DNA from: a virus
Taxonomy: Duplodnaviria > Caudoviricetes
DNA length: 64,000 nucleotides
Reading direction: 5' to 3' (one strand)
IMG/VR virus record: IMGVR_UViG_3300028887_000100
Location: 1-64,000 of that record
In this document: piece after piece, positions 1 to 42,109 of the stretch
Layout of the letters: each line of letters starts with the position of its first letter
How positions within the stretch are numbered: the first letter of the stretch is position 1
The notes under the pieces: model-generated
Told to the model about the DNA's origin: nothing
The model's database searches: none
What the model saw: only the letters and a program-made list of their open reading frames with translations
Position numbers and translations under genes: made by a program

Positions 1-21
1 TTTTTGTGTTTCTAGTTCTTC

Positions 22-47
22 ATTAAAGGAGATTTCTTTTTCGCGAG
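22..47 (-). promoter_or_regulatory. Phage-type promoter CTCGCG-N14-TTTAAT
   Basis: One of eight copies of (T/C)TCG(C/T)N-N14-(-10 box) in 1-2.8 kb. Confidence 0.55.
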
Positions 48-53
48 GGAGAT

Positions 54-84
54 AAAAGGATAGCAGAGAATCTCTCTACTACCC
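54..84 (-). terminator. Intrinsic terminator
   Basis: GGTAGTAGAGA-GAT-TCTCTGCTATCC-TTTT directly after the stop at 93. Confidence 0.7.
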
Positions 85-92
85 ATTTTGAA

Positions 93-374
93 TTACTCTG
101 TGAAATAGTTGTCTACTTCATCAACATTATGGAGTATTTCTTCTTCGGGAACTCCATTATCCCTTGCTCTTTCAACACTTTCATCAAGATCATCAATGTC
201 TTCGAAATCATCAAAGTCATCATCATCAGGTTCTTCTTCCGGCTCAAGGTCATCGTCTTCATCATAATCCTTCAGATAATCAGGTTTGATTACCTTATAG
301 GCAAAATATGCTCCTAATCCGATAACCGGAGCTGTTAAAAGTCCTGCTATAAATCCTTTTGCTTCTTTTTTCAT
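93..374 (-). CDS. Small protein with N-terminal membrane helix and very acidic tail
   Basis: Start MKKEAK after AGGAGG RBS; hydrophobic GFIAGLLTAPVIGLGAYFAY, then D/E-rich tract. Confidence 0.75.
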   Translation of the reverse strand: MKKEAKGFIAGLLTAPVIGLGAYFAYKVIKPDYLKDYDEDDDLEPEEEPDDDDFDDFEDIDDLDESVERARDNGVPEEEILHNVDEVDNYFTE

Positions 375-413
375 TTTTAAACCTCCTATTTTGTGTAAAG
401 TGTTTACAGTGTC

Positions 414-439
414 ATTATACAAGACAAAATTTTGGCGAA
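414..439 (-). promoter_or_regulatory. Promoter TTCGCC-N14-TATAAT
   Basis: Perfect -10 box with conserved upstream box at fixed spacing. Confidence 0.65.
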
Positions 440-440
440 A

Positions 441-472
441 GAACAAGAGGACTAGATTACTCTAATCCCCTT
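441..472 (-). terminator. Intrinsic terminator
   Basis: AAGGGGATTAGA-GTAA-TCTAGTCCTCTT then GTTCTTT, after the stop at 481. Confidence 0.6.
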
Positions 473-480
473 ATTTTGAA

Positions 481-804
481 TTACTTCTTCTCTCGATCAC
501 TCATAAACTGAGAGATTTCCGACAAAATGTCTAACTGTCCTACATAACGGGCCAATTTGTCATTGTTTTTCATGAACTGCTTCATACGCTCTTTAGCTTC
601 ATCTGTAGGTTCATTGTCATCATCTTTCTTGATTTGCTGCTTTAAGATTTCTGTCTCCATTGTTAACTTCATAGACTGCATCGTTACGTCTAAAGTTTTC
701 TTAGCGACGAAAACATAAAGCTCTTCTTCAAGCTTATCCGATTCCTCTTTACCTATACCGAAGTCTGCTTTTAAAGCTTCGTGTGCATCAAATTTCTCAC
801 TCAT
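481..804 (-). CDS. Hypothetical helical protein
   Basis: Start MSEK after AAAGGGG RBS; own promoter and terminator. Confidence 0.65.
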   Translation of the reverse strand: MSEKFDAHEALKADFGIGKEESDKLEEELYVFVAKKTLDVTMQSMKLTMETEILKQQIKKDDDNEPTDEAKERMKQFMKNNDKLARYVGQLDILSEISQFMSDREKK

Positions 805-820
805 AACTTTATCCCCTTTC

Positions 821-846
821 ATATAATGACACATAAAAATCGCGAG
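821..846 (-). promoter_or_regulatory. Promoter CTCGCG-N14-TTATAT (weaker match), overlapped by a terminator hairpin
   Basis: Same upstream box; hairpin CGGGGATCATA/TATGGTCCTCG overlaps it. Confidence 0.45.
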
Positions 847-879
847 GACCATAAATATCTATGATCCCCGTAATTTGGT

Positions 880-1128
880 TTAGTCAGTGGTCTTTTTTAT
901 TTTATTAACTATTAAATAACCTACTACAATTACAGACCAAAATACTGTAATAACCAGAAATCTGAAACAAATTACTAACCAGTCAAGACCGGGAATTTGT
1001 TCTATAAAAATTCCTTTTAATCCATTTTCCTTTCTTGACTTAATTATATAACGTGCATCAGAAAAATATTCTGGTATACTGAGCATTAAGCCCATAATTA
1101 AATAAATCTCTAATAAATTAATTAACAT
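880..1128 (-). CDS. Small membrane protein (two hydrophobic segments)
   Basis: 82-aa ORF with AGGAGG RBS; hydrophobic N- and C-terminal stretches. Confidence 0.7.
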   Translation of the reverse strand: MLINLLEIYLIMGLMLSIPEYFSDARYIIKSRKENGLKGIFIEQIPGLDWLVICFRFLVITVFWSVIVVGYLIVNKIKKTTD

Positions 1129-1143
1129 AGTAATTCACCTCCT

Positions 1144-1169
1144 ACTATATAACTGGAGATTTTAGCGAA
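1144..1169 (-). promoter_or_regulatory. Promoter TTCGCT-N14-TATAGT
   Basis: Conserved box and spacing. Confidence 0.6.
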
Positions 1170-1189
1170 TAAATAAAAATGCGTTCTAG

Positions 1190-1309
1190 AATGCCTCTGT
1201 AACGCACCAGAATGCCCATATTCGGCTTTTTAGGTATAAAGTGGTATAAATCTACACCAAAATATTAAATAGGCCTAAATAAGGCTTGTAGTGCGTCATA
1301 GAGGGTATT
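1190..1309. other. Long imperfect inverted repeat (about 120 nt stem-loop)
   Basis: AATGCCTCTGTAACGCAC (1190-1207) pairs with GTGCGTCATAGAGGGTATT (1291-1309); non-coding. Confidence 0.55.
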
Positions 1310-1313
1310 TAAA

Positions 1314-1342
1314 AACAGATAGGACTATTTCTAATCCTACCC
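1314..1342 (-). terminator. Intrinsic terminator
   Basis: GGTAGGATTA-GAAA-TAGTCCTATC-TGTTTTT. Confidence 0.65.
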
Positions 1343-1386
1343 ATTTTGAATGTTTTTATTTTTTACTGCTTGAACATTCTAAACAA

Positions 1387-1824
1387 TCAGTCTTTATTAC
1401 TATTTCTTTTTTCAATTTCTGCCTGTAACTGTTCTACTGAGAAGTCCTCAAGACCTGTAGTATCAACTTCTTTTACCGGTTTGGCGATGTTCTTTAAAGA
1501 ATCTCTAATACCACAAAGTTCTGATATAACTTTTCTAGTACAATCCTCACAAACGTTGTCTAACTTAAGTAAATATTTATCTGAAGCACGCGAATCTCTA
1601 TAAATTTCATGATTTGCATCTTCAAGATTTATATCTTCTTCCGGTACAATACATCTGTAATGATGACCATTTTTGTATATATCATATTGTGTATCTTTGT
1701 AGAGATCAGTATCATCTTTCCAATACGCCGTAAAAGTTGCATTTAATTCACTACTATGTTTATCAGTTTGAAAAATTCTCTTACCACAACAGTCACAAAA
1801 TGTGATTTTATAACTTTTTTCCAT
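1387..1824 (-). CDS. Cys-rich hypothetical protein (possible zinc binding)
   Basis: CDCC near the N-terminus and CEDC later. Confidence 0.65.
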   Translation of the reverse strand: MEKSYKITFCDCCGKRIFQTDKHSSELNATFTAYWKDDTDLYKDTQYDIYKNGHHYRCIVPEEDINLEDANHEIYRDSRASDKYLLKLDNVCEDCTRKVISELCGIRDSLKNIAKPVKEVDTTGLEDFSVEQLQAEIEKRNSNKD

Positions 1825-1865
1825 TTTTATTTCCTCACTTTCTGTAATAAAGTGTTTATAGTGTC

Positions 1866-1891
1866 ATTATATGGGACAAAAAATTAGCGAA
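1866..1891 (-). promoter_or_regulatory. Promoter TTCGCT-N14-TATAAT
   Basis: Perfect -10 box, conserved upstream box. Confidence 0.65.
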
Positions 1892-1894
1892 TAA

Positions 1895-1922
1895 AACAGA
1901 TAGAACCATAAGGTCCTACCCA
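1895..1922 (-). terminator. Intrinsic terminator
   Basis: GGTAGGACC-TTAT-GGTTCTATC-TGTTTT. Confidence 0.6.
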
Positions 1923-1942
1923 TTTTGAAGAGTTTAATTATT

Positions 1943-2263
1943 TCATGAAGCGAGTCTCTCCAATTCTGCTTCATACATGAGGACCTCTGCCTCATACTCG
2001 TGCTGGATTTCCAGCCAATCTTCGTCGTGCCTCTTTTCATAATTGGCCTTGGCACGCTCAACTCCGGCCTTTGCTTCTTTCAGCCTCCGATTATATCTAG
2101 CTATATCCTCGGTTCTTTCTTTCTGAGCTGCTATTTCGGCATTTCGTTCCTTAATAGCCCTTGTTTGTTCTTCTTCACGCTTCTTTCTTTCCTTCTTTTC
2201 TGCAGAAGCGACCATCGATAATCCAAACAGGGCGCCAATTCCTAATGCTAATTTCTTTCCCAT
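1943..2263 (-). CDS. Membrane-anchored coiled-coil protein
   Basis: Start MGKKL after AAAGGAG RBS; hydrophobic N-terminus then charged helix. Confidence 0.65.
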   Translation of the reverse strand: MGKKLALGIGALFGLSMVASAEKKERKKREEEQTRAIKERNAEIAAQKERTEDIARYNRRLKEAKAGVERAKANYEKRHDEDWLEIQHEYEAEVLMYEAELERLAS

Positions 2264-2303
2264 AAGTTTTCTCCTTTCGATATGTGAATTATTAATCGTT
2301 GCT

Positions 2304-2329
2304 ATAATATGACTATTAAAATTAGCGAA
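2304..2329 (-). promoter_or_regulatory. Promoter TTCGCT-N14-TATTAT
   Basis: Conserved box and spacing; preceded by terminator GGGAAC-TTATG-GTTCCC-TTT (about 2331-2354). Confidence 0.6.
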
Positions 2330-2368
2330 AAACGAAAGGGAACCATAAGTTCCCAATCATTTATGAAA

Positions 2369-2638
2369 TTATAAAACTTTTAATTCCTCATACCTTAGAG
2401 TGTATGTTCCATGAGGAAATGAATCAACCTCGATGTGTTCACCATAATTTTTATCATCTGTAAGATCTGGTATACGTCTGTCTTTGAGAATCAAAAAATC
2501 TTCTTCTTCATCAGAATTCTCTTTACAGAATTGTATAGCTTTCTCCTCAGAATCAAATACTGCCATTATACGATCATAATCCATTGGTTCATATCTGTCA
2601 TTATCATAAAACTCTAAATGTACTAAATAAATTTTCAT
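2369..2638 (-). CDS. Small hypothetical phage protein
   Basis: MKIYLV...IMAVFDSEEKA, a common small phage protein type; AGGAGG RBS. Confidence 0.7.
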   Translation of the reverse strand: MKIYLVHLEFYDNDRYEPMDYDRIMAVFDSEEKAIQFCKENSDEEEDFLILKDRRIPDLTDDKNYGEHIEVDSFPHGTYTLRYEELKVL

Positions 2639-2651
2639 TTTATCACCTCCT

Positions 2652-2677
2652 ATTATAATAACGGAGATTTTAGCGAA
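2652..2677 (-). promoter_or_regulatory. Promoter TTCGCT-N14-TATAAT
   Basis: Perfect -10 box, conserved upstream box. Confidence 0.65.
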
Positions 2678-2759
2678 AAAAAAGAATAGAAGGAACTACT
2701 CAAAAATATCTTTTTCGTTCCTTCCGTTCCCCTCCTTTTGTATGTTTACCAGACGTACT
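2676..2759 (-). ncRNA. Candidate small RNA of about 85 nt (promoter and terminator, no ORF)
   Basis: Downstream of promoter 2766-2791; ends in GGAAGGAAC/GTTCCTTCT hairpin plus U-tract; no ATG. Confidence 0.35.
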
Positions 2760-2765
2760 ACTTCT

Positions 2766-2791
2766 ATAATATAACATTACTTTTACACGAA
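2766..2791 (-). promoter_or_regulatory. Promoter TTCGTG-N14-TATTAT
   Basis: Variant of the same box and spacing. Confidence 0.5.
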
Positions 2792-2799
2792 GGGGATAA

Positions 2800-2838
2800 A
2801 AAAAATAGGGACGTTTTTAAAAGCGCCCCCTTTTTTTG
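2800..2838. terminator. Bidirectional terminator
   Basis: GGGACGTTTT/AAAAGCGCCCC stem flanked by A- and T-tracts. Confidence 0.65.
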
Positions 2839-2961
2839 TTTCAGCCATTCTCCCCCCTAACTCACACAAACCAGATGGGTAGAATCTTGGTTGGAGAAAC
2901 TACCCATTTTGATTTATGTGGAAGGAATATGTATTATATCGAACTAAGATAGTGAACTGAG

Positions 2962-4614
2962 TTAATCTTCATCATCTTTTGCCTTAGAAGCATTTGATGA
3001 CATAGCTTTATACTTATAGTTCTTACCTGAGTGTATAAGAATACACTGCTTCTTCTGCTCTTCCTCATATCTAGCATTCAGATCTGCTGCTGAGATAATG
3101 GAACTGTGAGATAATCTATTAGCTGCGGCGCCACGATTAGCTCTTTCCTTAAATGCTCTGTACTCATCAAGGATTTCGTCGCCATTCTTTGTTGACTGTA
3201 CTTTATTAATGTTCATTTCTTCCTCCTCTATTGCTGAGTGTTTTGCTTCTTTGTTGCTAGGAGCGTACTTTTTGCTAAGTCTATCAAACTTATTACTCAT
3301 TATAGTTCTAACTTCTTTCCAAAGTTCAGCGCCTTTTCCAGAATCTTCAGCGATAGCATCAATATACTTAGCCATATCACGATAAATCTCATTGACATAT
3401 TCATTAGCCTTGTTATATTTATTCTTATCACCCTTATTTGAACTAACTGCTACTAAGTCAGATCCGTCCCAAATCATAGCGCCATCTTTGATAGCTTCCT
3501 TTACTTCATGGTAAAGTTCGTCAATACCGAAATCTCTATTCTTGACAATTTCCTTAGCCACTTTCTTAGGATCTTCATTCTTAGCTTTCTCAGTGTAATC
3601 CTTTACTGCCTTATCAGACCTAACAGCATCATTTTCAGCTTTCTCTTCTCTAGTCTGTTTCTTGATAGGTCCTTCTTTCTTGACAGTTTCAGAATTATCT
3701 TTGGCTTCCTGCTTCTTAGAAGTACTCTCAGCCTTTACAGCATCATGTTTGGTAGTATCGGTAGTCTTAGGTCCATTTCCTTTAGCACCACCTGTAACTT
3801 TTTCCCACCTATTTTGAATTTCCTTGGTAACTGCATCCTGGAATTCCTTAGATCCGTAGAGATCGACTCCTGTAGAATCTGTGAATTTCTTAGCCCAGTC
3901 CTGAACACTCTTAACATAGTTTTCATCATCTTCAGTCATACCGGAAATTGTACCATCATAGTTAAGAGTCCAACCACTATTCTCAAATCCACCTTCAAAC
4001 TGAGTAAAGAATTCATCCATACGTTCGTCTTTGAGAAGTGCATTAACACCAGCCTTTAAACCGCTTTCTTTTGCAGTTCTCTCGATTTTACGATCGGCTT
4101 CCATCTTAGCACCTTCTCTAAACTGCTTAAGATCTGTAGGCAATTTAGTAGTGTTACCATTGGAATCAACTTTTATCATCTTACTATCTTCAGGATCAAC
4201 TTCGTAGGTAGATTCTTTTTTAGTCTCTGTAGTTGATCCATCAGCTTTGTGAGCAGCATCCCATTCCTCTTTAGTATAATAATACTTATAGTTTCCGGGA
4301 TCGCCTTCACGCTTATAGTACTTTGTGTTTTCACGCTCTGTACCATATAATGCCGACTGAGCATGAATTAAAGTACCATTAGAGGTTACTTCTTCATAAT
4401 ATCTATTATTGAGATCGGTAACATTGATTGTCTGTGTATGTGCCTTCTTATTAGCCTGAGAACCACTGAATACTTTCTTTCTAAAATCATAGAAATCTTT
4501 ATTCATATCAGTAGGCTTCTTACCTTCCTTCTCTTTTAATATGCTACTATGTCCAAGTTTTCCCCATTTTGATTCATATGCTTTAATTTTGTTTGTTAAC
4601 TCATCTAAAGTCAT
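2962..4614 (-). CDS. Modular array protein K (550 aa), HA...YYYTKEEWDA type, with internal repeat
   Basis: Shares Y(Y/F)YTK(E/A)EWDA with 8991-10487; two copies of a DLNxRYxEE...LIH unit. Confidence 0.8.
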   Translation of the reverse strand: MTLDELTNKIKAYESKWGKLGHSSILKEKEGKKPTDMNKDFYDFRKKVFSGSQANKKAHTQTINVTDLNNRYYEEVTSNGTLIHAQSALYGTERENTKYYKREGDPGNYKYYYTKEEWDAAHKADGSTTETKKESTYEVDPEDSKMIKVDSNGNTTKLPTDLKQFREGAKMEADRKIERTAKESGLKAGVNALLKDERMDEFFTQFEGGFENSGWTLNYDGTISGMTEDDENYVKSVQDWAKKFTDSTGVDLYGSKEFQDAVTKEIQNRWEKVTGGAKGNGPKTTDTTKHDAVKAESTSKKQEAKDNSETVKKEGPIKKQTREEKAENDAVRSDKAVKDYTEKAKNEDPKKVAKEIVKNRDFGIDELYHEVKEAIKDGAMIWDGSDLVAVSSNKGDKNKYNKANEYVNEIYRDMAKYIDAIAEDSGKGAELWKEVRTIMSNKFDRLSKKYAPSNKEAKHSAIEEEEMNINKVQSTKNGDEILDEYRAFKERANRGAAANRLSHSSIISAADLNARYEEEQKKQCILIHSGKNYKYKAMSSNASKAKDDED

Positions 4615-4628
4615 ATGGGTTCCTCCTT

Positions 4629-7289
4629 TTATCTTTTAAGACTGTTTATCTCAGCATTGATACGATCCCAATCTGCCTGAGTAAGTTCTGTATAGTCCTT
4701 ACCACCAAGATTGAGGTTGTTTACTGCTTTGTTTAATAATGCCCAACCACTAGCATCACTACCACATGAAGAAGACAGTTTCTTACTTATTTCTCTAGCT
4801 TCTTTTAATGTAGTATCTTTTACAGAATCATATTCACTCTTAGATGTATCTCCAGCATTATATAATGTCCAGTATGAACTAGGAACGGATTTATAATTGT
4901 AAATATGATCAACAATATCTTTCTTTGTTTCATCATCAAGTTTGCTTAATACCTTTGAATTGTATGAACCATCGTTTGATAAAGAACTAAGTAACTCATC
5001 TCTAGTCGAATTCTCTTTATTAACCATCTTTTCCCATCTATCCCAAGAATCATCAATTCCATTATCATAAGCCCAGATAGATTCTGCAGTTAAACTACCT
5101 TGATTAAGATCATCATATAAATAAAGACGAGGCATGTAAGAAATATCTTCCATTTTACCACCGTCATCCATTAAAGCCCTATTCAAACCAGCAAGAGCTA
5201 AATACTCATTTTCAACTTTATCAAAGTCTCCATAAGTCTTTTCTAACTCATCAAAATCATCTTTAAACTTCTCTTTGATCGCTTTATCAACGTTATTACG
5301 CTGCTCTTCAAATCTGGGATCATCATATAGTTTCTGGAGCGTTTCGGCACGCTTTCTATAATCTTTGTCATTTAAGTCAGCTAACATCTTTACAGCTTCT
5401 TTATTTGCTTTAGCGTCTTCTTTGGAATTTATTGAACCAATCTTTTGATCGTTAAACAATTTATTTCGTCTTGATATATCGTCTTCATATTCAGCTCTAG
5501 CTATATTCTTCACATCATCCCATTCATCATCAGATAAATCTTTTAAACCTTTTTCATTAAAGTTATTGTATTTTTTCTTATTATGTTCTTCTAATGCTCT
5601 TGTAACATAATAGTCACCAAAATCGTCAACAATATTAATATCTTTAATTTTTCCTCTTATTCTATCGATGTCCTGTAATATATTATTTTTATTTTCTTTA
5701 ATATACTTTTCAACATTCTCATTTAATTCTTCTTCTATTTTCTTTTGATTTAATTCTTCTTTAGCATTAGCTAAAGCAGCTTCTCCTTCAAATTTTACCC
5801 TCTTAGCACTTCTTGGAGGATATTTCATTGCTTTTTCATGCAGTTCTTTATATTGTTCTCTTAATTCTTCTTGTCCATCATAACCAGATACAAAAGGTTC
5901 ATTTTCGTCATGTAAAGTATTCATTCTTATAGTATTAGGATTCATACTAGGGTATTTTTCTTTCATTTTATTTGCAATATCAGCTTTTATATTAGAATAA
6001 TATTCTGAAATAATTGGATCTTCACTATAATATTTAAGTTCTTTTCCAGCTAAATAATCAACAAGTTCCTTATCTTTAGCCCAGTTTTTACCTTGCTGTT
6101 CTTTAACATTATCCCACATTTTATTTTCTTCATTAATATAAGGATTATATTTAGGATCACTATAACTTACATTCTTTTTATTAAAAATCGAACCGATTTT
6201 CTGATCAGGTTGAGAACCAAATCTATCTATATTAGTATCGTCTTTGCTAAATAAAGCATCAACAAATTTTTTACCTTCATCGTAATCTGTAGCATAACTT
6301 ATTTCCCAAGCACCAGGATATTTATCAAAGTCATCATTAGTCATTTTTTCAGTTTTATCTATAAACTGTTTAATATAATCTTTTGAATAACCTTTATAAT
6401 ATAAATCAGCTAATGCTCCAAGACCGATTGTTTGATCTTCATTTAATGCCCAAAATCTAGAATCATCATTACCAGGAGTTGCATCATTGTCTAACCATCC
6501 AGCTTTTTTTAAAGCAAGTAAAGTTAAATCTCCAACATCGTTGTATTCTTGTCTTTTACTATGATCCTGTCTTAATTCATACATACTAGTTGTATCGTTT
6601 AATATTGTTTTAAATTCTTCATCAGTAATATCTTTACCTTTTAATTCTTTTGTGGTTTGTATTTTATTATCTATTTCTCTAACAGGATTCCAGTATTTTT
6701 TCTCATCATATGCATCTATTTCTTCAGGGGTCATTTTAGATTTTTCATATAATTCAGCATCGGCAAAATCTTCAATATTTTTACCTTTTTTAAGCATCTT
6801 TAAACCTTTTTTAGTTAAAGTACCATCAGCATTCTGATACTTATCATTTATATAATAAGCTTTACCCCTTTTATCAAAACCTAAAGTTGTAGAACCTATT
6901 TTAGTATCTCCAAGAAAATCTAATCCTAATCTTTTATCAGGATCATAAGCAGTATTAGAGGAATAATTAGTTCCAGGAACTATTCGTTTATCTGGGTCAA
7001 ATGAACTATTTTGATCATTTTGCGAATATAAATTATATTCCCTATCTCTATTTTCTCTTATTTCTCTAAAGCCAAAACCACCAATTTTCTGGTTCTCTAA
7101 CTTATTCTTCTTAGTAGTCCCACTAGGACCAAAATATCTTTCTTTTCCAGCTTCATTAAAGGTACCATCAGCGTTTTGCCAGCGACGCTGTCCCCATTTC
7201 TGTCCAAGGATTCCATAATGCGATAATGCCTTACTGGAGTCTATGCCTTGGTATTTGTCTTTGTTATATAAGAATTCAATTTTATTCAT
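4629..7289 (-). CDS. Modular array protein J (886 aa), HYG leader and W-LLN...ADW C-terminal domain
   Basis: HYGILGQKWGQRRWQNADG; four KIG(G/S) motifs; C-terminus matches 10779-11645. Confidence 0.85.
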   Translation of the reverse strand: MNKIEFLYNKDKYQGIDSSKALSHYGILGQKWGQRRWQNADGTFNEAGKERYFGPSGTTKKNKLENQKIGGFGFREIRENRDREYNLYSQNDQNSSFDPDKRIVPGTNYSSNTAYDPDKRLGLDFLGDTKIGSTTLGFDKRGKAYYINDKYQNADGTLTKKGLKMLKKGKNIEDFADAELYEKSKMTPEEIDAYDEKKYWNPVREIDNKIQTTKELKGKDITDEEFKTILNDTTSMYELRQDHSKRQEYNDVGDLTLLALKKAGWLDNDATPGNDDSRFWALNEDQTIGLGALADLYYKGYSKDYIKQFIDKTEKMTNDDFDKYPGAWEISYATDYDEGKKFVDALFSKDDTNIDRFGSQPDQKIGSIFNKKNVSYSDPKYNPYINEENKMWDNVKEQQGKNWAKDKELVDYLAGKELKYYSEDPIISEYYSNIKADIANKMKEKYPSMNPNTIRMNTLHDENEPFVSGYDGQEELREQYKELHEKAMKYPPRSAKRVKFEGEAALANAKEELNQKKIEEELNENVEKYIKENKNNILQDIDRIRGKIKDINIVDDFGDYYVTRALEEHNKKKYNNFNEKGLKDLSDDEWDDVKNIARAEYEDDISRRNKLFNDQKIGSINSKEDAKANKEAVKMLADLNDKDYRKRAETLQKLYDDPRFEEQRNNVDKAIKEKFKDDFDELEKTYGDFDKVENEYLALAGLNRALMDDGGKMEDISYMPRLYLYDDLNQGSLTAESIWAYDNGIDDSWDRWEKMVNKENSTRDELLSSLSNDGSYNSKVLSKLDDETKKDIVDHIYNYKSVPSSYWTLYNAGDTSKSEYDSVKDTTLKEAREISKKLSSSCGSDASGWALLNKAVNNLNLGGKDYTELTQADWDRINAEINSLKR

Positions 7290-7339
7290 ATAGCTTTTAT
7301 AAATGAATTTCCATACCGTTTGTATGGTATGGTATTCAT
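7286..7339 (-). CDS. 17-aa leader ORF coupled to protein J
   Basis: AAGGAG RBS, MNTIPYKRYGNSFIKAI*, ATGA overlap with the J start. Confidence 0.4.
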   Translation of the reverse strand: MNTIPYKRYGNSFIKAI

Positions 7340-7353
7340 TATTTACTCCTTTC

Positions 7354-7397
7354 TATAAAGGGTATGGGTAGCACTCAGATTATTGAATACTACCCAT
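7354..7397 (-). terminator. Strong hairpin (terminator-like, weak U-tract)
   Basis: ATGGGTAGTATTCA-ATAATC-TGAGTGCTACCCAT. Confidence 0.5.
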
Positions 7398-7419
7398 TTT
7401 GAATTGTTGCAGAAAATAA

Positions 7420-7569
7420 TTAATCTTCTTTAGCATCGAACTTCATGTTCTCAATTTCCTTCTCTACTGCGATTGCAACAAAGATTGAAACTGCCTTCTT
7501 CTGCTCATCATTGAGTGTCTTAAGAACTTCCTCAACTGTCTTACCATTATCTAAAGTTGTCTTTGCCAT
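7420..7569 (-). CDS. 49-aa helical protein I (missing from ORF track), paralog of 12159-12302
   Basis: MAKTTLDNGKTVEEVLKTLNDEQKKAVSIFVAIAVEKEIENMKFDAKED; AGGAGG RBS. Confidence 0.75.
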   Translation of the reverse strand: MAKTTLDNGKTVEEVLKTLNDEQKKAVSIFVAIAVEKEIENMKFDAKED

Positions 7570-7584
7570 GTCTTTATCCTCCTA

Positions 7585-8697
7585 TTATTTACTAAGCATA
7601 TCGTAATATGCATCTGCTCTCTTTTCAAGCTTCTTGTAAAGTGCATTATCAATAGCTATTGAAGGTGCCGCTAAAGTTCCTGCTAATGCCGTTGCAATAA
7701 CTGCCGGAACACCGAAACCACTCAATGCTAATACTGCACCTGCTACAGGTAATGATGCTAATTCATATAACTTGAAGTTTCTTAAAGCTAAGAATACTGA
7801 ACTTGCAACATCTGATACCTTTCTATTAGATGCAGTTCTTCTCTTACCAGCTTCATTGAGAGTTCCATCAGGCTTAAGATACTGTCTTGAAACCTTAGGC
7901 TTACTAAGTGATCCGACCTTCTCATCAAATACTGAATCTTCAAGCTTCTTGGCAGTATCTTCATCAGGCTTCATTGTTTCGTTATTCTTCTTGTTATAAT
8001 CCTTTAAGAACTTCTCAACAGCTTCCTTATCGCCCTTCTTGATCTTGCCGACAAGTTTATTATACTTCTCTTCATCACCCATCTCAAGAGCATCCTGAAT
8101 CTTAGCGATCTTTTTCTTGTTATTCAGAACAGAAAGTCTTTCAGCATCGGAGTAATCCTGATCGCTATTCTTCATGAAATTACTATAAGATTCACGAAGA
8201 GCCTGAACATCGTCATAGTTGTTAATAGCCTTCTTAACAGAAACAACACCAGCAGCGATGTCATAGATACCAGCCATACCAATCTTCTGATCATTTGAAC
8301 TACCAATTCTAATACCTCTTTCGTCAGCTTCTCTTTCAAGTTCACTAAGTTCGGTATCATACTCATCATCATTTTCTGGATGATTATACATGTACTTAAG
8401 ACGATTTGAGATTTCTTTATCATTCATACCTTTTGTTGAATTCTTATAAAATGATTTAGACAATCCGAATCCGCCAATCTTTTCTTCCTTATTCTTCTTA
8501 GTGGTACCATTCTTGCCGAAATATCTTATTTTACCTTCCTCATTAAATGTACCGTCAGCATTCTGCCATCTTCTCTGACCCCATTTCATGTTCGGAATGC
8601 CATAGTGAGAAAGAGATCCGCCGTTCTGTTCTTTCTCTTCATTAGCTTTATCTGCTTTGTATTTATCAAGCTTAGAATAAAACTCTATTCTATTCAT
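7585..8697 (-). CDS. Modular array protein H (370 aa), HYG leader and hydrophobic hairpin tail
   Basis: HYGIPNMKWGQRRWQNADG; Gly/Ala-rich hydrophobic C-terminus ending ADAYYDML. Confidence 0.85.
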   Translation of the reverse strand: MNRIEFYSKLDKYKADKANEEKEQNGGSLSHYGIPNMKWGQRRWQNADGTFNEEGKIRYFGKNGTTKKNKEEKIGGFGLSKSFYKNSTKGMNDKEISNRLKYMYNHPENDDEYDTELSELEREADERGIRIGSSNDQKIGMAGIYDIAAGVVSVKKAINNYDDVQALRESYSNFMKNSDQDYSDAERLSVLNNKKKIAKIQDALEMGDEEKYNKLVGKIKKGDKEAVEKFLKDYNKKNNETMKPDEDTAKKLEDSVFDEKVGSLSKPKVSRQYLKPDGTLNEAGKRRTASNRKVSDVASSVFLALRNFKLYELASLPVAGAVLALSGFGVPAVIATALAGTLAAPSIAIDNALYKKLEKRADAYYDMLSK

Positions 8698-9001
8698 TAT
8701 CTTTGTCCTCCTTCTTAAGGTTTACTTCAGGATAATCTATCTCTGAATTGTGGTAGATCATTGTATCCTCATTTACAGCTTTCAGAAACCAATCAATTCT
8801 GGCATAAGGATTAGCATTAATTACAACATTACCAGGAAGTAACTGATAATAAGGTACTCCCATTTTGAATTCTTCAGGATTTTCTACTGCTCTAACAATA
8901 GTTCCTAAATCAGAATCATAAATCTCAGTTACTGTTAATAAAGGAAACTTTGCTTTGAACTGTGCTAATATCTTTTTAGCTTTAGGTTCGTTATTTTTCA
9001 T
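8690..9001 (-). CDS. Partner G, candidate immunity protein, paralog of 10494-10760
   Basis: Overlaps the stop of the papain-fold gene; FKxxxP...AVxxPxE...PYY shared with the paralog. Confidence 0.65.
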   Translation of the reverse strand: MKNNEPKAKKILAQFKAKFPLLTVTEIYDSDLGTIVRAVENPEEFKMGVPYYQLLPGNVVINANPYARIDWFLKAVNEDTMIYHNSEIDYPEVNLKKEDKDNE

Positions 9002-10487
9002 TATCAGAACCTCCTTTTGTCTTCATAGTCTTTTTACTAATCTTACCAGAATCTTTCATCTTTTGACTAGCTTTAAACTCCTGGTTATCAAGTCTCTTAT
9101 ATCTAGAAGTAAAATTCAGAGTACTATCATTCAGTTTCTTAATTGTGGATTCATCATACTCAAATCCATTCTGACAATCATAATAATGTACACCATCAGC
9201 TTTTACTTCATAGAATATACTATGACCACACCATTGCGTACCGTCAAAATACGACCAGTTAAAATCACCATATGATCCTACTGGTTCTTTACTTATATTT
9301 CTATAGGTATCTTTGTAATCATCATAATCTGTAAACTTTCCGGTCCAAAGATTATCATATGATGTTCCTATTTCAGGATCAGTTCCACTAGCCATTATGC
9401 CATCTACATCAGAACCCGGCGTAACGTCATACCCTTTCTTTCTCAAAGCCATTGCTTGAGTACATGCATAACAATTATTAGCATATTCATTAGGACCAAC
9501 ACCTATACCATATAATAATTCATCGACCATCTGCTGATCAGAATAATAATATCCAGGATTAACTATCTTCATTTCTTCTTCAGTTGATAGTTCATAGTTC
9601 TTTATTCTAAATCCAGTCTTAGGATCAATTTCCTCAGTTTCTTTATTTGCTTCTATCCATTCATAAACATCTTTAATTTTTTCATCATTTTCTGCTATTT
9701 TCATTTGGAAAATTCCAGCAGAGTAATCACTAACTAACTGATTAAACTCGTCTGTTGTTTCAGGAACCGTATAATCAATTATGTCAGTCATTACATTTAA
9801 AATACTATTAGAATCATTCTTCATCTGTTCAGAATTCTTCTCTATTTCAGCAGCATTCTTTTCTTTATACCATTTTATATAATCTTTATTTTTTAATGCT
9901 TCTTCTTTTTCGGCTTTTATCTTTTCTGCTTCTGCATTCACTTCAGCCTGTCTATTCTTTCTTTCTTCTTCAGTCTTCTTAGCATTCTTCTGGAAATTTT
10001 CTATATATGCTTTTCTTTTTACTTCTCTCTCAGCTTTAATCTGCTCAGCTTCTTTATTAACTTCAGCTTGTCTATTCTTTCTCTCGGCTTCTGCCTGTCT
10101 AGCTGCTTTTAAAGCCTCTTCTTCTTTACGCTTTTTCTCATTCTCCTGTGCCTGTTTTATAGCAGCTTCTCTACCAGATTGTGCCTGCTGTACAGGAGTC
10201 TTCTTTGCAGCATTCTCTTTCTCTTTAGCAGCTCTATCAGCACCAGCATTCTGTGCAGCTTGTTTATTCTTATTGTAAGCATCCCATTCAGCTTTGGTGT
10301 AGAAATATCTATGCTTACCTTTACCCCAGAAGTCTTCTAACTTAGCATAATAGCCAGGTTGATTACTTTGATAATGATTATAGCTAGTGCCAGCATGCAT
10401 GAAAGAGTCCATACTGTTTAATTCTTTTGTATCTTTCTGCTTTTCTTTATACTTTTTCAAAGCATCAAACATTTGATATCTATCCAT
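8991..10487 (-). CDS. Modular array protein F with C-terminal papain-fold (Tox-PL-like) domain
   Basis: NNCYAC...ALRKKGYDV...GHSIF...YDCQ gives a Cys-His-Asp triad. Confidence 0.8.
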   Translation of the reverse strand: MDRYQMFDALKKYKEKQKDTKELNSMDSFMHAGTSYNHYQSNQPGYYAKLEDFWGKGKHRYFYTKAEWDAYNKNKQAAQNAGADRAAKEKENAAKKTPVQQAQSGREAAIKQAQENEKKRKEEEALKAARQAEAERKNRQAEVNKEAEQIKAEREVKRKAYIENFQKNAKKTEEERKNRQAEVNAEAEKIKAEKEEALKNKDYIKWYKEKNAAEIEKNSEQMKNDSNSILNVMTDIIDYTVPETTDEFNQLVSDYSAGIFQMKIAENDEKIKDVYEWIEANKETEEIDPKTGFRIKNYELSTEEEMKIVNPGYYYSDQQMVDELLYGIGVGPNEYANNCYACTQAMALRKKGYDVTPGSDVDGIMASGTDPEIGTSYDNLWTGKFTDYDDYKDTYRNISKEPVGSYGDFNWSYFDGTQWCGHSIFYEVKADGVHYYDCQNGFEYDESTIKKLNDSTLNFTSRYKRLDNQEFKASQKMKDSGKISKKTMKTKGGSDNEK

Positions 10488-10493
10488 AACTAC

Positions 10494-10760
10494 TTATCCC
10501 TCCATAGATTTATCATGATAAATGAGGAAATTAGGTTTAGCTACTTTAGACACCAAGTTAGCATTATCTATGTAGCTAATTCCGTCAACTTTACCTTTGG
10601 AATAAACATAATAAGGATCCATCTCCATCTCCCATTCTTTAGGATCTTTAACAGCTAAGATTATTGATAAATCCCCTTTATTCCAAATTTTCATTATTGT
10701 CTTACCTGGACGAAACTTTTTGAATGCATCAAAGATCTGTCCAACTAAATCGTTGCCCAT
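10494..10760 (-). CDS. Partner E, candidate immunity protein
   Basis: Similar to 8690-9001; start MGND after AAAGGAG. Confidence 0.65.
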   Translation of the reverse strand: MGNDLVGQIFDAFKKFRPGKTIMKIWNKGDLSIILAVKDPKEWEMEMDPYYVYSKGKVDGISYIDNANLVSKVAKPNFLIYHDKSMEG

Positions 10761-10778
10761 ACTGTCTCCTTTCAAAGT

Positions 10779-11645
10779 TTATTTCTTCTTAAGTTCTTGT
10801 ATCTTTTCATTAACTCTATTCCAATCAGCTGCAGACATATTCTTCTGATCAGCTGAAGATATACCAAGTTCTTTCATTGCAGAGTTGAGTAAATCCCAGT
10901 TACCAATAATACCTCTGTCAAGATTCTTTTGTACAGCCTTTCTAGCTTCTTTAATTTCAGCTTTCTCTTGTTTTGTAGGCTTCTTATTTTCTTTCGTCGC
11001 GCCAATCTCTTTGTTGATCTTAGCAATATCGTCACCAGTTAAATTACCTTTCTTATCGAGAACTTCATTTATTTTTTTCTTAAATTCATCATTCTGTATA
11101 TTGGCAGTTTCTTTCTTCTCAACTGGTTTCTCAGCTTTAGGTTCTTCAGTCTTAGATGCAGGAGCAGTAGTAAGTCTACCTTTATCGAATGCCTGTGCAT
11201 CAAATTCCTGCATATACTTTCTTGGATTCTTTAAATACTTTGCGTATTCTTTATTTACATCATCATCATTATCAAGTGTTTCTGAATTCTGTATAGTCTC
11301 AACAAAATCTCTATCATACATATGTTTTTCAGTAGCATTACTTAGCTTTTCTTTTTGTTTATTCTCATCATAAACATGATTATCTTTCATACTATCAGGA
11401 TTATTAGCTTCTTTTTTATTTTGTGCATACTGGTATCTGTTATATGCACTTTTAATCTTAGTAGGAACTTTATCGCTTATGGAACCATCAGGATTAAGGT
11501 ATCTAGCTTTACCTTCTTCTGTAAGAGAACCATCAGGATTCTGGTATCTTCTTACACCCCATTTTTGTCCAAGAATTCCATGATGCATTAAGGAGTCTTT
11601 CTCATTAAACAATCTCAAATTGTCATAAAAGTCATTTCGTTCCAT
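10779..11645 (-). CDS. Modular array protein D, HHG leader and W-LLN...ADW C-terminal domain
   Basis: HHGILGQKWGVRRYQNPDG; GNWDLLNSAM...AADWNRVNEKIQELK. Confidence 0.85.
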   Translation of the reverse strand: MERNDFYDNLRLFNEKDSLMHHGILGQKWGVRRYQNPDGSLTEEGKARYLNPDGSISDKVPTKIKSAYNRYQYAQNKKEANNPDSMKDNHVYDENKQKEKLSNATEKHMYDRDFVETIQNSETLDNDDDVNKEYAKYLKNPRKYMQEFDAQAFDKGRLTTAPASKTEEPKAEKPVEKKETANIQNDEFKKKINEVLDKKGNLTGDDIAKINKEIGATKENKKPTKQEKAEIKEARKAVQKNLDRGIIGNWDLLNSAMKELGISSADQKNMSAADWNRVNEKIQELKKK

Positions 11646-11662
11646 GTTAATTAACTCCTTTC

Positions 11663-12172
11663 CTACTCATTTTGATTTTCTTCTTTTTCTTTTAATTGCT
11701 CTGCCTGATTCTCTTTGAGTAAATCGTAATACTTGTTAGCTTTCTTCTCACAATACTTTGAATCAATATGATTGTAACCAGCTTTAACTAAGTTTTTTGC
11801 AATCATTACTCCACCAACAACAGGAATAGTTAAAGTACCTAAGCCAAAAGCTGAAATAACTGGAATTACACCGCCTTCAGTTGCTGCATAAGCTAATCCT
11901 GTTAATCCCGCTTTAATACCAGCTTTTGTTAACTCCCAGTTTCTAGATCTCTTATCCTCTTCTGATCTATTGTTGTAGTAAGTCTCTTTTCTATTTACTT
12001 TGTGTTCATTGACTTTCTTAGAACCAAAATATCTTTGCTTACCTTCTTCATTGAAAGTACCATCAGGATTTTGCCAACGTCTTATGCCCCTCTTTTGTCC
12101 AAGGATTCCATAATGTTGAAGAGAATTACTTTTATACTCATTTAACTTATCATAGAATTCATTCCTGTTCAT
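11663..12172 (-). CDS. Modular array protein C, HYG leader and hydrophobic hairpin tail
   Basis: Start MNRNEF; HYGILGQKRGIRRWQNPDG; hydrophobic segment; ANKYYDLL matches protein H. Confidence 0.85.
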   Translation of the reverse strand: MNRNEFYDKLNEYKSNSLQHYGILGQKRGIRRWQNPDGTFNEEGKQRYFGSKKVNEHKVNRKETYYNNRSEEDKRSRNWELTKAGIKAGLTGLAYAATEGGVIPVISAFGLGTLTIPVVGGVMIAKNLVKAGYNHIDSKYCEKKANKYYDLLKENQAEQLKEKEENQNE

Positions 12173-12302
12173 CAGCTTCCACCTCAATTCCATGTTTCTT
12201 TAACTCTTCTCGAACAACTATAGCAGTAAAAGCTGAAACTGCTCTCATCTGTTCATCAGTTAAAGTCTTAAGAATATCTTCTATTGTTTTCTCTTTTTTC
12301 AT
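12159..12302 (-). CDS. 47-aa helical protein B (missing from ORF track)
   Basis: MKKEKTIEDILKTLTDEQMRAVSAFTAIVVREELKKHGIEVEADEQE; overlaps both neighbours. Confidence 0.75.
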   Translation of the reverse strand: MKKEKTIEDILKTLTDEQMRAVSAFTAIVVREELKKHGIEVEADEQE

Positions 12303-13228
12303 GCTATGATACCCTCCTTCTTTAAGTAATCATAATTAGGTGTTAAGTTATCTGTTCTTAAGAAGCAATGACCAGGTAAAGCCATATTAGCATGTTTAGC
12401 TATATCGTTCATACTATATTTCTTATTTGATTGTGCATCATATATAGTAGCTTTACCATCTTCAATTCTATAGAACATTGAATGCCCACCACCTTCAGCC
12501 CAGTATACCATAAAGTTACCATATGATCCTTCGGGCTGTTTGTTAAGCTGTTCAACAATACTATTGAAACGTCCCATTGTAGGATCTTTCTTCTCTTTAT
12601 ACCAATTCTTAAGATCCCTAGCATAGCAACCATCAGGACATATACCAGCTTTAACATCATATCCCCTTCTCTTTAAATCAAGAGCAGTTGTACAAAGCAT
12701 ACAGTTTTCAGTTCTACCTAATTTCTTTTCCGATTGTATTCCAGAAACAGATTCGGTAAATAAACCATAACCATATTCTCTGTTAATCATTTTGATGTCA
12801 TCTTCTACACTTGCATCAGGATTTGACTTAAGTTTTAAACCAGTCTTTGGATCTGTCTTTTCAAGTTGTCTATTAGCTTCCCAATTCTTAATATCTTTTG
12901 TGACTTTGGCATTGTGTATAGCATCTCCAATTTTAACACCAGCATAAGTTCCAGCAGATATACCGGCTAATGCTGCTAAAGCTGTTAATGATCCGATTTT
13001 CTCTTCAGGTTCTTTCTTAGTTTGAGTCTGATTTTTGGAATCCTCCTCTTTCTTAGGCTCTCTTGCAGGACCATATCCATATCTCTCTCGGCCAGCTTGG
13101 GTGTAAGAACCATCTTTTTCCTGGAAACGCCTTACACCCCACTTCTGACCGATAATACCATGGTGATACAATTCATTTTGCCTTTGTCTTGCTGCCTCTA
13201 ATTTGGTATAATATTCTGACTGTAGCAT
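12299..13228 (-). CDS. Modular array protein A, HHG leader and papain-fold (Tox-PL-like) domain
   Basis: HHGIIGQKWGVRRFQEKDG; ENCMLC...LKRRGYDV...GHSMF...YDAQ. Confidence 0.85.
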   Translation of the reverse strand: MLQSEYYTKLEAARQRQNELYHHGIIGQKWGVRRFQEKDGSYTQAGRERYGYGPAREPKKEEDSKNQTQTKKEPEEKIGSLTALAALAGISAGTYAGVKIGDAIHNAKVTKDIKNWEANRQLEKTDPKTGLKLKSNPDASVEDDIKMINREYGYGLFTESVSGIQSEKKLGRTENCMLCTTALDLKRRGYDVKAGICPDGCYARDLKNWYKEKKDPTMGRFNSIVEQLNKQPEGSYGNFMVYWAEGGGHSMFYRIEDGKATIYDAQSNKKYSMNDIAKHANMALPGHCFLRTDNLTPNYDYLKKEGIIA

Positions 13229-13253: not shown

Positions 13254-13523
13254 TTAGTTATTTAGTTTTGCTTCTAACTTGTCGACTCTTTTCTCCAAGT
13301 TTTTAATATCGCTTCTTATTTCTGGGATTTGTGTTCCGAAATTGTTGTGTTTGTCAACTGTTTCCTTTAGATTACTAATTCGTTCTTCGATTACTGCCTG
13401 ATTTTTGTCTAACTTTGCATCCATCTCTCGTGATTGTTTACCACTAATGATAACATTTGAGAATATGGTTGCAACTGCACCAATGATCGCTACGACAATT
13501 ACTGCAATTGAAGCTCCATCCAT
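13254..13523 (-). CDS. Holin-like / XhlA-like membrane plus coiled-coil protein
   Basis: One N-terminal TM helix then coiled coil; next to the endolysin. Confidence 0.65.
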   Translation of the reverse strand: MDGASIAVIVVAIIGAVATIFSNVIISGKQSREMDAKLDKNQAVIEERISNLKETVDKHNNFGTQIPEIRSDIKNLEKRVDKLEAKLNN

Positions 13524-13584
13524 GATATTGTACCTCCTTCCACATATTTTTGTTATTACCAAATTATTAACAGCATTAATATCT

Positions 13585-14445
13585 TTAAATAGGATTCCAG
13601 ATCATATCGAGTTTCTTAGCAGTATTTTTACCAACAATACCATCTGCAGTAAGTTTATTAGCTTTTTGGAATTTCTTTACAGCTGTATCAGTTTTAGTAC
13701 CAAAATCTCCGTCAATCTTTCCGCAAGCATAACCTTTCTTAGTTAATTGTTCTTGTAAAAGCTTGACATCAGTTCCTTTACTACCCATTTTGATTAATCT
13801 GTAAACAACCGGTTTAACATCAAGAGGTTCAGTATAATCTATAAAGTCAGCATAACCATAAGCAGACCAACCATGTTTATCTACTGATTCGTATACACAA
13901 TTCTCTGCAGAACTTTTCATATGTATACACATGCCATCACCTAAATAAATACCGGTATGCTTTATCGACTTTGATGATTTACCTTTAAACAGTAACACCA
14001 AATCATGAAGAGGAAGCGTAGTAATTGGGCCTTTTCTTTCAGATCTGTCATAGTATCCTTGAGCCGTAGTGTCATATCCTGAGAGTCCAGCATGTTCTCC
14101 TGAGCAGTCAGAACCAGGCTTTCCTTCTCCTTCCTTTAGTTTGTCATCATAGTATTTCCGATCATATGTAGAAGTATGGTAGTTACGATATGCTTTATCT
14201 ATAGTTTCTCTTGTTATGATCGTACAATAGTTAAAGCCCCAAACATATATCGTTCCATCTTCTTTGATTTGAACATAATACTTTCTTGCTTTCTTCTGCG
14301 GAGTTTTGTTGCCCATTTGGTTGTCTCCTTTCTTGTTATTTGTTTTTAGTAATTCACCGAGTCGTTCTAATCCTAATGTAAATATTATTAGCATCAAGAC
14401 TAGAATCAACCCGGCAAATGCTTGAAGGAATGGTAGATCTGTCAT
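13585..14445 (-). CDS. Endolysin: NlpC/P60 peptidase plus peptidoglycan-binding domain (second start at 14316)
   Basis: SDCSG...KHTGIYLGDGMCIH; DVKLLQEQL...IDGDFG...FQK...ADGIVG. Confidence 0.9.
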   Translation of the reverse strand: MTDLPFLQAFAGLILVLMLIIFTLGLERLGELLKTNNKKGDNQMGNKTPQKKARKYYVQIKEDGTIYVWGFNYCTIITRETIDKAYRNYHTSTYDRKYYDDKLKEGEGKPGSDCSGEHAGLSGYDTTAQGYYDRSERKGPITTLPLHDLVLLFKGKSSKSIKHTGIYLGDGMCIHMKSSAENCVYESVDKHGWSAYGYADFIDYTEPLDVKPVVYRLIKMGSKGTDVKLLQEQLTKKGYACGKIDGDFGTKTDTAVKKFQKANKLTADGIVGKNTAKKLDMIWNPI

Positions 14446-14708
14446 TACTGATTCATACCATTATTTGCTTTAAATTGTTCATCCGCAGCCTTCTTGTCTT
14501 TGTTGTAGGCAATAGTAGATACACCAATGAGTGCGCCTATCAAGCCTGCAGTTGCATTGATTATTATGACAATGGTATTAACAGTAGTGGGATCTACATT
14601 AAGAGCACCTAATACCAAAGATAAGAATGTAGCAAGAGCAGGAAGTGCAATAAGTGCAATCCACTTGAGCCAATTGTAAAGTGCATCAGGAATTTTAGGC
14701 ATAATCAT
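14445..14708 (-). CDS. Holin
   Basis: 87 aa with two TM helices and charged C-terminus, directly upstream of the lysin. Confidence 0.8.
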   Translation of the reverse strand: MIMPKIPDALYNWLKWIALIALPALATFLSLVLGALNVDPTTVNTIVIIINATAGLIGALIGVSTIAYNKDKKAADEQFKANNGMNQ

Positions 14709-18868: not shown

Positions 18869-18894
18869 TTTTTATTCGTCTCCTTTTAAAAATA

Positions 18895-18930
18895 TTATAG
18901 GAGACCATATGTTATATACAGTCTCCTATT
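18895..18930 (-). terminator. Hairpin upstream of the recombinase
   Basis: ATAGGAGAC...GTCTCCTAT followed by AATATTTTT. Confidence 0.5.
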
Positions 18931-18969
18931 TTGAAACGAATAAATTTTCGCGACACTAAAATTTTGGTT

Positions 18970-19071
18970 TTATTGGGTTTCATCTTCTTTCCATAACCGC
19001 TTTAATCCTATCATCAAAGCAATTAAAGTGATTGCAACGCCTACTAAAAATCCTATAAGAAAATTAATCAT
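18970..19071 (-). CDS. 33-aa single-TM peptide
   Basis: MINFLIGFLVGVAITLIALMIGLKRLWKEDETQ. Confidence 0.5.
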   Translation of the reverse strand: MINFLIGFLVGVAITLIALMIGLKRLWKEDETQ

Positions 19072-19090
19072 CTTCCATCCTAAAATAGTT

Positions 19091-19231: not shown

Positions 19232-19265
19232 ATCTTTCCTCTCCTAAAATGGTTATTTTATGGGG

Positions 19266-42056: not shown

Positions 42057-42109
42057 ATCTGACTGCATCCTTTCCTGTAAAATCAGCAAAAAGCAGGTTG
42101 GTAGCCTGC

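Follow-up and report, generated by a model that had tools for sequence, protein, structure and literature searches.

A polymorphic, cassette-built family of late phage proteins marked by the DUF7211 unit: possible cargo of the virus head

Introduction

The internal proteins IPI-III and Alt of bacteriophage T4 carry a capsid-targeting sequence which is removed by the gp21 prohead protease. Alt is also cited in PMC5512222. Virion delivery is the concept put forward for late, packaging-linked multidomain proteins (PMC5512222; PMC3482391). Here we examined an array of eleven phage genes, A to K, which runs on the minus strand from position 13228 down to position 2962 of a 64,000-nucleotide stretch of DNA (the window). 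This stretch is the start of an IMG/VR virus record of 81,871 bp with a completeness rating of 100%. An earlier note, drawn up from the bare sequence, had read the array as a set of leader-tagged effectors which are addressed to the phage head. Its eleven open reading frames (ORFs) were all found in place on the minus strand.

The analysis established that the array is one instance of a family of late phage proteins which is polymorphic and built from cassettes; it includes toxin-type enzymes and immunity-like partners and is marked by a conserved unit, the tag. This tag probably marks proteins that are loaded into the virus head. The full reading, i.e. a polymorphic effector cargo which is loaded into the virion independently of MuF proteins and is ejected into the next host, was assigned a probability of roughly 0.45.

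Results

Leaders of the array

The seven large genes A, C, D, F, H, J and K had been said to start with a similar helix. Indeed, all seven have this first helix and an L-x-H in common. In A, C, D, H and J the N-terminal unit aligned with 15 invariant columns at a mean column identity of 59%. This type-1 leader is the Pfam family DUF7211 (PF23847) with the core [DN]-x-L-x-H-[HY]-G-[IV]-x-G-[QM]-K-W-G-x-R-R-[YFW]-Q-N-x-D-G-x-L-T-x-x-G-x-x-R-Y. The motif ascribed to the five leaders had two small deviations: C has R for the W of KWG, and H reads G-I-P-N-M-K-W-G. The PF23847 profile is short (25 positions, gathering score 27 bits). On the predicted proteins D reached 27.2 bits and A 22.7 bits. A six-frame search returned five copies between 12 and 31 bits; D (30.7) and H (27.5) were above the cut-off, J (26.5) and A (26.4) just under it, and C scored 12.2 bits because R stands in place of W. 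The PHROG families 32444, 7021, 11022 and 24711 likewise matched DUF7211 leaders. By itself, the leader was predicted to form a small hairpin and a helix (mean predicted local distance difference test, pLDDT, 70).

For F and K a second leader motif had been proposed. Both proteins do have a common unit (R-Y-F-Y-T-K-x-E-W-D-A), RYFYTKAEWDAY in F and YKYYYTKEEWDAA in K (BLASTP E 6e-5), but in K it is located at residues 82-123 and is not N-terminal; the K N-terminus carries L-G-H-S-S. Type-1 and type-2 leaders have only the N-terminal helix and L-x-H in common.

Paired bodies

The sorting of the C-termini into three classes with two copies each was borne out by alignment. The papain-fold bodies of A and F matched over about 230 residues (E 3e-22). 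A (12299..13228) consists of a DUF7211 leader, a Gly/Ala-rich hydrophobic helix (residues 78-96) and a Tox-PL1/Gln_amidase body; F (8991..10487) has the type-2 leader (helix, F-M-H-A-G and the unit named above), a coiled-coil spacer and the papain-fold body. Leaders and tails are thus mixed as described before: the same body sits on type 1 in A and on type 2 in F. The second class, C (11663..12172) and H (7585..8697), ends in a hydrophobic hairpin with YYDLL and YYDML, respectively. The similarity (E 2e-6) spans a degenerate second tag and the hairpin, with hydrophobic windows of 1.9-2.0. The likely start of C is the second Met, the ORF extends to 12193. In H the DUF7211 leader is followed by a spacer and the degenerate second DUF7211 unit (residues 259-293, domain E 1.7e-4). 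The third class, D (10779..11645) and J (4629..7289), has a 60-aa tail in common (E 2e-7). In D it follows a DUF7211 leader and a charged low-complexity body, in J a DUF7211 leader and an 886-aa multi-module body with a degenerate second unit (residues 129-171, domain E 2.4e-4). The second units of H and J start with x-K-I-G-[SG], and J has three further such sites. K (2962..4614) is a type-2 leader protein with several L-x-H-[SA] sites and a single copy of its unit.

Against Gln_amidase (PF15644) A scored 27.3 bits against a cut-off of 24.1; F stayed below it with 15.7 bits. The NC-H-DxQ signature is intact in both. It is the catalytic signature which defines Tox-PL1 (PMC3482391). In 11 sequences N, C, H and Q were invariant and D was present in at least 90%. 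By these residues, A and F would be active-site-intact papain-fold (Tox-PL1) enzymes of the bacterial toxin/effector type. An AlphaFold2 model of the F papain domain had a mean pLDDT of 64.7, with 71-94 in the 10-residue blocks of the C-terminal core (residues 151-240). Foldseek against the PDB had as top matches YopQ (E 3.8e-5), a ubiquitin clippase, contact-dependent inhibition (CDI) and papain-like toxin/immunity pairs, SpvD and OspI, with low TM-scores (0.28-0.47). None of the Foldseek matches listed for this model had an NlpC/P60 or CHAP fold, and a PDB sequence search with the papain profile gave no significant match. We also considered that the papain bodies are endolysin-type amidases. 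This was rejected: the phage owns an NlpC/P60 endolysin, the fold matches are of toxin/effector type and an immunity-like partner is conserved.

Related loci were collected, 79 from viral and 76 from genome records, the latter mostly metagenome-assembled genomes (MAGs) of Lachnospiraceae, Oscillospiraceae and Ruminococcus; single loci are cited by L and their proteins by P numbers. Large terminase (TerL), portal and protease-capsid genes in them were labelled by jackhmmer. Upon iteration with hidden Markov models (HMMs), neither the D/J tail nor the C/H hairpin had homologues in 160 related loci.

Small partner families

The two small partner families, each said to occur twice, were recovered with E 5e-7 (E/G) and E 8e-12 (B/I). 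E (10494..10775, 93 aa) and G (8690..9001, 103 aa, overlapping the end of F) form an immunity-like family. The E/G HMM found six relatives in the related loci. In five cases the relative directly adjoins a papain gene at its 3' end; one of these follows the giant protein P0244 described below. E/G relatives likewise stand directly after papain genes in L165-L168. By analogy, an immunity gene is placed in this way behind the gene of its toxin. In the window G overlaps the F end accordingly; but E precedes F, and A is followed by B. A Protein Atlas search with G was uninformative, giving only scores of 0.76 with unnamed clusters.

B (12159..12302) is a 47-aa stand-alone helical module, K-T-[VI]-x-[ED]-[VI]-L-K-T-L-x-[DE]-E-Q, and I (7420..7569, 49 aa) is its paralogue. 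An HMM built from B and I only matched the spacer of fusions of an S78 protease with the major capsid protein (MCP) with E down to 2e-10, and upon iteration the HMM returned to B and I with E 1e-13. The module is present once or twice per spacer of these Oengus-like protease-capsid fusions. In L028/L029 it is fused to the C-terminus of a DUF7211 protein.

The fusions (L058:8658-10625, L096:8108-9916 and about 85 similar ORFs of Oengus-like phages) have the spacer at about residues 130-330. There, one or two modules of the form K-T-V-x-[DE]-V-[FL]-D-T-L-T-E-E-Q are bracketed by repeated L-x-H-[SA]-D-D. Residues 130-330 contained 592 His; S or A came next in 280, and of these 174 had L at -2. 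L-x-H-[SA]-[DE]-[DE] is enriched in the spacers, and the L-x-H-[SA]-D-D sites probably are maturation cut sites. The spacer L-x-H echoes the L-x-H which opens every leader, and type-2 leaders even have L-x-H-[SA]. As a sign of a shared processing site this likeness is suggestive only.

The tag family at large

A profile from the five leaders matched 27,232 cluster representatives (clusters at 50% identity) at E<=1e-3 and 15,752 at E<=1e-10, and it retrieved thousands of PF23847-annotated proteins. The conserved core of the tag comprises about 32 residues and is strongly basic. All of 565 internal copies (100%) had H at position 0, and 96% had L at -2. The top matches carried 2-6 tags each, located at either terminus or inside the protein. 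The leader had been likened to the N-terminal address of T4 proteins. This did not hold up: the tag is repeated, often internal or C-terminal, and some proteins consist of tags only. Therefore, a plain N-terminal signal was rejected.

Invariant C-termini were not found. When the C-termini behind the leader were catalogued as the earlier note had proposed, 422 tails from 160 loci fell into 146 clusters, 106 of them singletons. Interchangeable bodies on a shared leader proved general beyond the window: the tag is joined to Ntox50 (E 1e-19), GNAT and P-loop kinase (AAA_33) domains, and to a putatively Rossmann-like body in a near relative. P0244 (1,583 aa) has tags at residues 6, 238, 543, 916, 1066 and 1239 and, besides, a GNAT domain, two hydrophobic modules and a C-terminal papain (Gln_amidase) domain. 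Together with P0246 and P0250 it belongs to proteins with 5-6 tags each and GNAT and/or papain domains. Such giants look like the window array fused into one polypeptide.

A common subfamily comprised 94 of 441 DUF7211 ORFs (loci L008-L162; e.g. L016:4224-4712 and L092:219-824). These proteins of 160-200 aa have a tag, a linker, a helix M-S-D-E-E-L-R-x-x-I-N-R-L-x-L-E-x-x-Y and a hydrophobic, Gly/Ala-rich C-terminal tail; the subfamily is absent from the window. The proposal that the D/J tail corresponds to this helix motif was rejected, the motif being absent from the window proteins.

Searches of other sources returned little. When the leader and a three-tag protein were used as tblastn queries, Faecalibacterium phage FP_oengus and unannotated faecal contigs were the only matches; the FP_oengus paper contains no virion proteomics. 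Megablast of the array against GenBank phages gave zero matches. A literature search for the DUF7211 name and motif strings yielded nothing relevant, and the Pfam and PHROG entries give no function.

A tag which is short, basic and not predicted to fold alone resembles a linear binding motif. Possibly the array encodes late or lysogeny-expressed accessory proteins which stay unpackaged in the cell and serve host takeover, anti-defence or superinfection exclusion. As a docking motif, DUF7211 would then attach them to a conserved target, from the host or a nucleic acid, and so bring many activities to the same place. The existence of tag-only proteins would agree with this. The small partners speak against it: an enzyme which requires a neutralising partner at home fits delivery elsewhere better, and the B/I module is common to the spacers of capsid proteins. 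All in all, and with the genomic data given below, we consider an unpackaged, intracellular role unlikely, though a serious alternative.

Genomic context and turnover of cassettes

The related loci are mostly Clostridia phages and prophages. Tag loci L092, L093, L103, L107, L125 and L136 were in MAGs labelled Prevotella, Muribaculaceae or Methanosphaera; because the tag pattern is otherwise Clostridia-wide, these six probably are misbinned phage contigs. In 77 of 156 loci tag genes lie between TerL and portal, and in 104 just upstream of TerL. Only 18 had no head gene, several of these being short contigs. At least two tag genes were present in 125 loci (maximum 11). A Pfam tally of the tag-gene neighbours gave portal 37, connector 26, S78 12, capsid 11 and TerL 10-12. 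P0244 is located between TerL and portal with an E/G-like gene next to it, and gp69 of FP_oengus occupies the same slot.

For unpackaged accessory proteins the 77 loci with tag genes between TerL and portal are difficult to accommodate. On the other hand, tags are found with two types of head: in one, scaffold and capsid genes are separate, in the other, protease and capsid are fused. Therefore, a partner in the virion would need to be very conserved, which rather suits an intracellular target.

The place immediately upstream of TerL is where the small terminase subunit is expected. Accordingly, DUF7211 could be a DNA- or terminase-associated module; the small tag proteins would then be packaging or DNA-condensing factors and the enzyme-bearing members secondary fusions. 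The strongly basic core would be suitable, and the 94 ORFs with tag, helix and tail are loosely like small terminase subunits. However, it does not fit that a genome has 2-11 copies whose bodies are unrelated, and that toxin domains as well as immunity-like partners are present. In the window a long distance separates the genes from the terminase, and the make-up of the array varies among close relatives, which would be unusual for an essential packaging factor. This makes a primary role in packaging very improbable.

In support of independence from MuF proteins, five complete tag-bearing phage genomes have neither MuF nor Phage_min_cap2. The window phage itself, however, carries a MuF-like Phage_min_cap2 protein (34573-35793). 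This covers positions 3-364 of the 366-position profile and is without a toxin extension.

Close relatives differ in their cassettes. In one relative, whose D is 97% identical, D and E are separated by an additional tag gene (385 aa) with a putatively Rossmann-like body; H, J and K of this relative have 467, 579 and 823 aa. In L163:1797-2615 (P0346), the extra cassette of a close relative, a DUF7211 leader is joined to a body with a G-D-A-P-G-I-D motif, which looks Rossmann-like and is possibly SLOG/DprA-like. The more distant L165 and L166, with a 73% identical endolysin, are without B, C, I and J, have a truncated or split A and extra type-2 genes, and differ from each other. Their K orthologue has 631-828 aa and a duplicated type-2 unit. 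The A orthologue is N-terminally truncated and without a leader in L165 (5827-6510) and split in two in L166 (5579-6226 and 6202-6480), which suggests decay of individual cassettes. As in polymorphic toxins, a conserved N-terminal unit is combined with hypervariable C-termini in the form of cassettes which vary between close strains.

When 121 upstream neighbour proteins were scanned, two matched the Acb2/Tad1 hairpin domain (an anti-CBASS/Thoeris sponge) and two HepT-like RNases. Known counter-defence and toxin genes therefore share the neighbourhood of tag arrays. The anti-defence-type hairpin in two loci is what one would expect near accessory proteins which act inside the cell.

Position of the array in the window

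The stretch which encodes the array is a tightly packed late-strand operon directly after the lysis genes; the minus strand carries almost all genes of the window. The lysis cassette starts with the holin (14445..14708, minus strand), an 87-aa membrane ORF whose orthologue in relatives is annotated Phage_holin_Dp1. The endolysin (13585..14445, minus strand) has NlpC/P60 and PG_binding_1 domains (Pfam E 2.7e-18 and 2.9e-5) and matches PHROG endolysin families. Between the endolysin and A an ORF for a 102-aa membrane/coiled-coil protein is located (13254..13562, minus strand); L165/L166 have a 72% identical orthologue at the same place. The eleven co-oriented array genes follow with gaps or overlaps of a few bases, except for a 130-nt gap from I to J. 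A terminator-like hairpin in this gap (7311..7332, minus strand) is a possible boundary of transcription units. It is weak because terminator-like sites in the region are not above shuffled expectation. Promoter-like sites are not above expectation either.

A site after the lysis genes is a classic slot for accessory genes ('morons') and would suit unpackaged accessory proteins. Co-orientation and tight packing with late genes, and promoter-like sites not above expectation, argue against them.

The same site raises the question whether the products are toxins which are freed by phage lysis and serve bacterial competition. The tag would bind to the envelope of neighbours, the hairpins would be pore formers and E/G would protect lysogens; the proteins would lack signal peptides because lysis by holin and endolysin frees them. 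Here and in L165/L166 the array is directly downstream of holin and endolysin, and in L168 a papain gene comes directly after the holin. The toxin plus immunity-like partner layout, the short repeated units, which are typical of wall-binding modules, and rare fusions to CW_7 and PG_binding_1 point in this direction. Yet no receptor-binding or translocation domain was recognisable, and we know of no pathway which would carry such proteins across the Gram-positive envelope. GNAT and kinase bodies require cytoplasmic cofactors, the fold matches are injected or contact-delivered effectors, and this reading hardly accounts for the 77 loci in which the genes are placed between TerL and portal. We therefore consider release by lysis quite unlikely as the route of these proteins.

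The head module lies upstream on the same record, with TerL (40743-42089), portal (36016-37686), scaffold (33455-34129) and MCP (32416-33426), scaffold and capsid being separate genes; the tape measure gene is at 25879-28551. No Peptidase_S78 or ClpP-type prohead protease was recognisable in the complete 81.9-kb record. The source virus is a temperate siphophage of 82 kb, its host probably a gut or rumen Clostridia bacterium. A tyrosine-recombinase-like gene (17834-18868) sits among the late genes, near a compositional junction (18190-19271) at which the GC content changes from about 0.32-0.35 on the left side to 0.38-0.42 on the right. Possibly, the left 18 kb, to which the array belongs, were acquired separately as a block. 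Downstream of K (window 1-2960) are several small genes with no family match (e.g. 2369-2638, 1943-2356 and 1387-1824). The 1943-2356 product resembles a 114-aa protein of L165 (E 8e-8); the tail region is therefore partly conserved in relatives.

Discussion

How could virion delivery of the array products work? The proteins would be late products which enter the procapsid and leave it, together with the DNA, upon ejection into the next host. In that cell the enzymes would act in the cytoplasm and the hairpin proteins would insert into the membrane. In the producing cell E/G would neutralise the papain enzymes. DUF7211 would serve all of them for docking or processing; its repeated and internal copies in relatives show that it is not a classical signal. 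The L-x-H of the unit is similar to the L-x-H-[SA]-D-D of the protease-capsid spacers and for this reason may be cut during maturation in those relatives which have the protease.

In most related loci the tag genes are inside the packaging/head block, which supports loading into the head. Toxin-type bodies, adjacency of E/G to papain genes, the B/I module in protease-MCP spacers and the turnover of cassettes are also consistent with it.

Several points weigh against loading. The window array is located after the lysis genes, about 30 kb away from the head genes. In Oengus-like relatives the lysis genes adjoin TerL; therefore, a site 'upstream of TerL' is at the same time one 'after lysis' and on its own is no pointer to the head. 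Without a recognisable S78 or ClpP-type protease, protease-dependent loading or cutting as in T4 could not work here. Outside the core, tag proteins show no enrichment of H-[SA], and a general 'His-site' processing of the bodies is consequently not supported. The tag alone is not confidently predicted to fold (mean pLDDT 70). Some DUF7211 proteins are tags and low-complexity linkers without any cargo, and a few carry the wall-binding domains CW_7 and PG_binding_1. Among 50,697 records FP_oengus was the only cultured phage with a tag, and the literature search found no virion proteomics or cleavage data for any member of the family.

A wider proposal can be put forward only tentatively. DUF7211 would represent an undescribed, MuF-independent capsid-loading route for polymorphic effectors and membrane-inserting proteins in phages of gut Clostridia. 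Tag and scaffold-like B/I module would dock the cargo, and in protease-bearing relatives cuts at L-x-H would release the modules of polyproteins.

The tag family has more than 27,000 clusters at 50% identity and is restricted to phages and prophages of those Firmicutes which dominate in gut and rumen. Should the tag serve for head loading or processing, thousands of unknown phage genes could be predicted to encode injected effectors, and their targets, such as host defence, transcription or membrane, would become testable. If it is a packaging tag, its length of about 32 residues would also make it convenient for filling phage capsids with foreign proteins. Should packaging prove wrong, the tag still marks a rapidly evolving pool of toxin/immunity-like genes in gut phages which current annotation misses.

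How does the array compare with known systems? The T4 targeting sequence is similar in being a short shared N-terminal element on unrelated late proteins, and a conserved pattern (L-x-H here, L/I-x-E in T4) is also present at the maturation sites of head proteins, which are putative in the case of L-x-H. In contrast to T4, conservation of the DUF7211 core past L-x-H goes far beyond what a cleaved signal would require, and there are internal and C-terminal copies. The window genome is without a detectable prohead protease.

Relatives such as P0244, in which several effector-type domains (GNAT, papain, hydrophobic hairpins) are joined in a giant late protein beside the packaging genes, are similar to polyvalent proteins (Iyer et al., 2017; PMC5512222). 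In the window, however, the modules are separate genes and the enzymes single-domain; a second unit has left traces in H and J only. The punctuating DUF7211 unit was not found in those passages of PMC5512222 which were searched.

The MuF polymorphic toxins of temperate phages (Zhang et al., 2012, PMC3482391; Jamet et al., 2017, PMC5576092) are similar in several respects. They are phage-encoded, with a conserved N-terminal unit and variable C-terminal toxins including Tox-PL1; a small immunity-like gene is located directly downstream, an arrangement which in the window may apply to F and G, the genes are linked to terminase, portal and capsid, and loading into the head is predicted. Unlike in these toxins, no array protein matched MuF (Phage_Mu_F). 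The DUF7211 tag of about 32 residues is repeatable and internal, and tag-bearing phages can be without MuF. Whereas MuF toxins are fused to one structural protein, the cargo of the array is spread over many genes.

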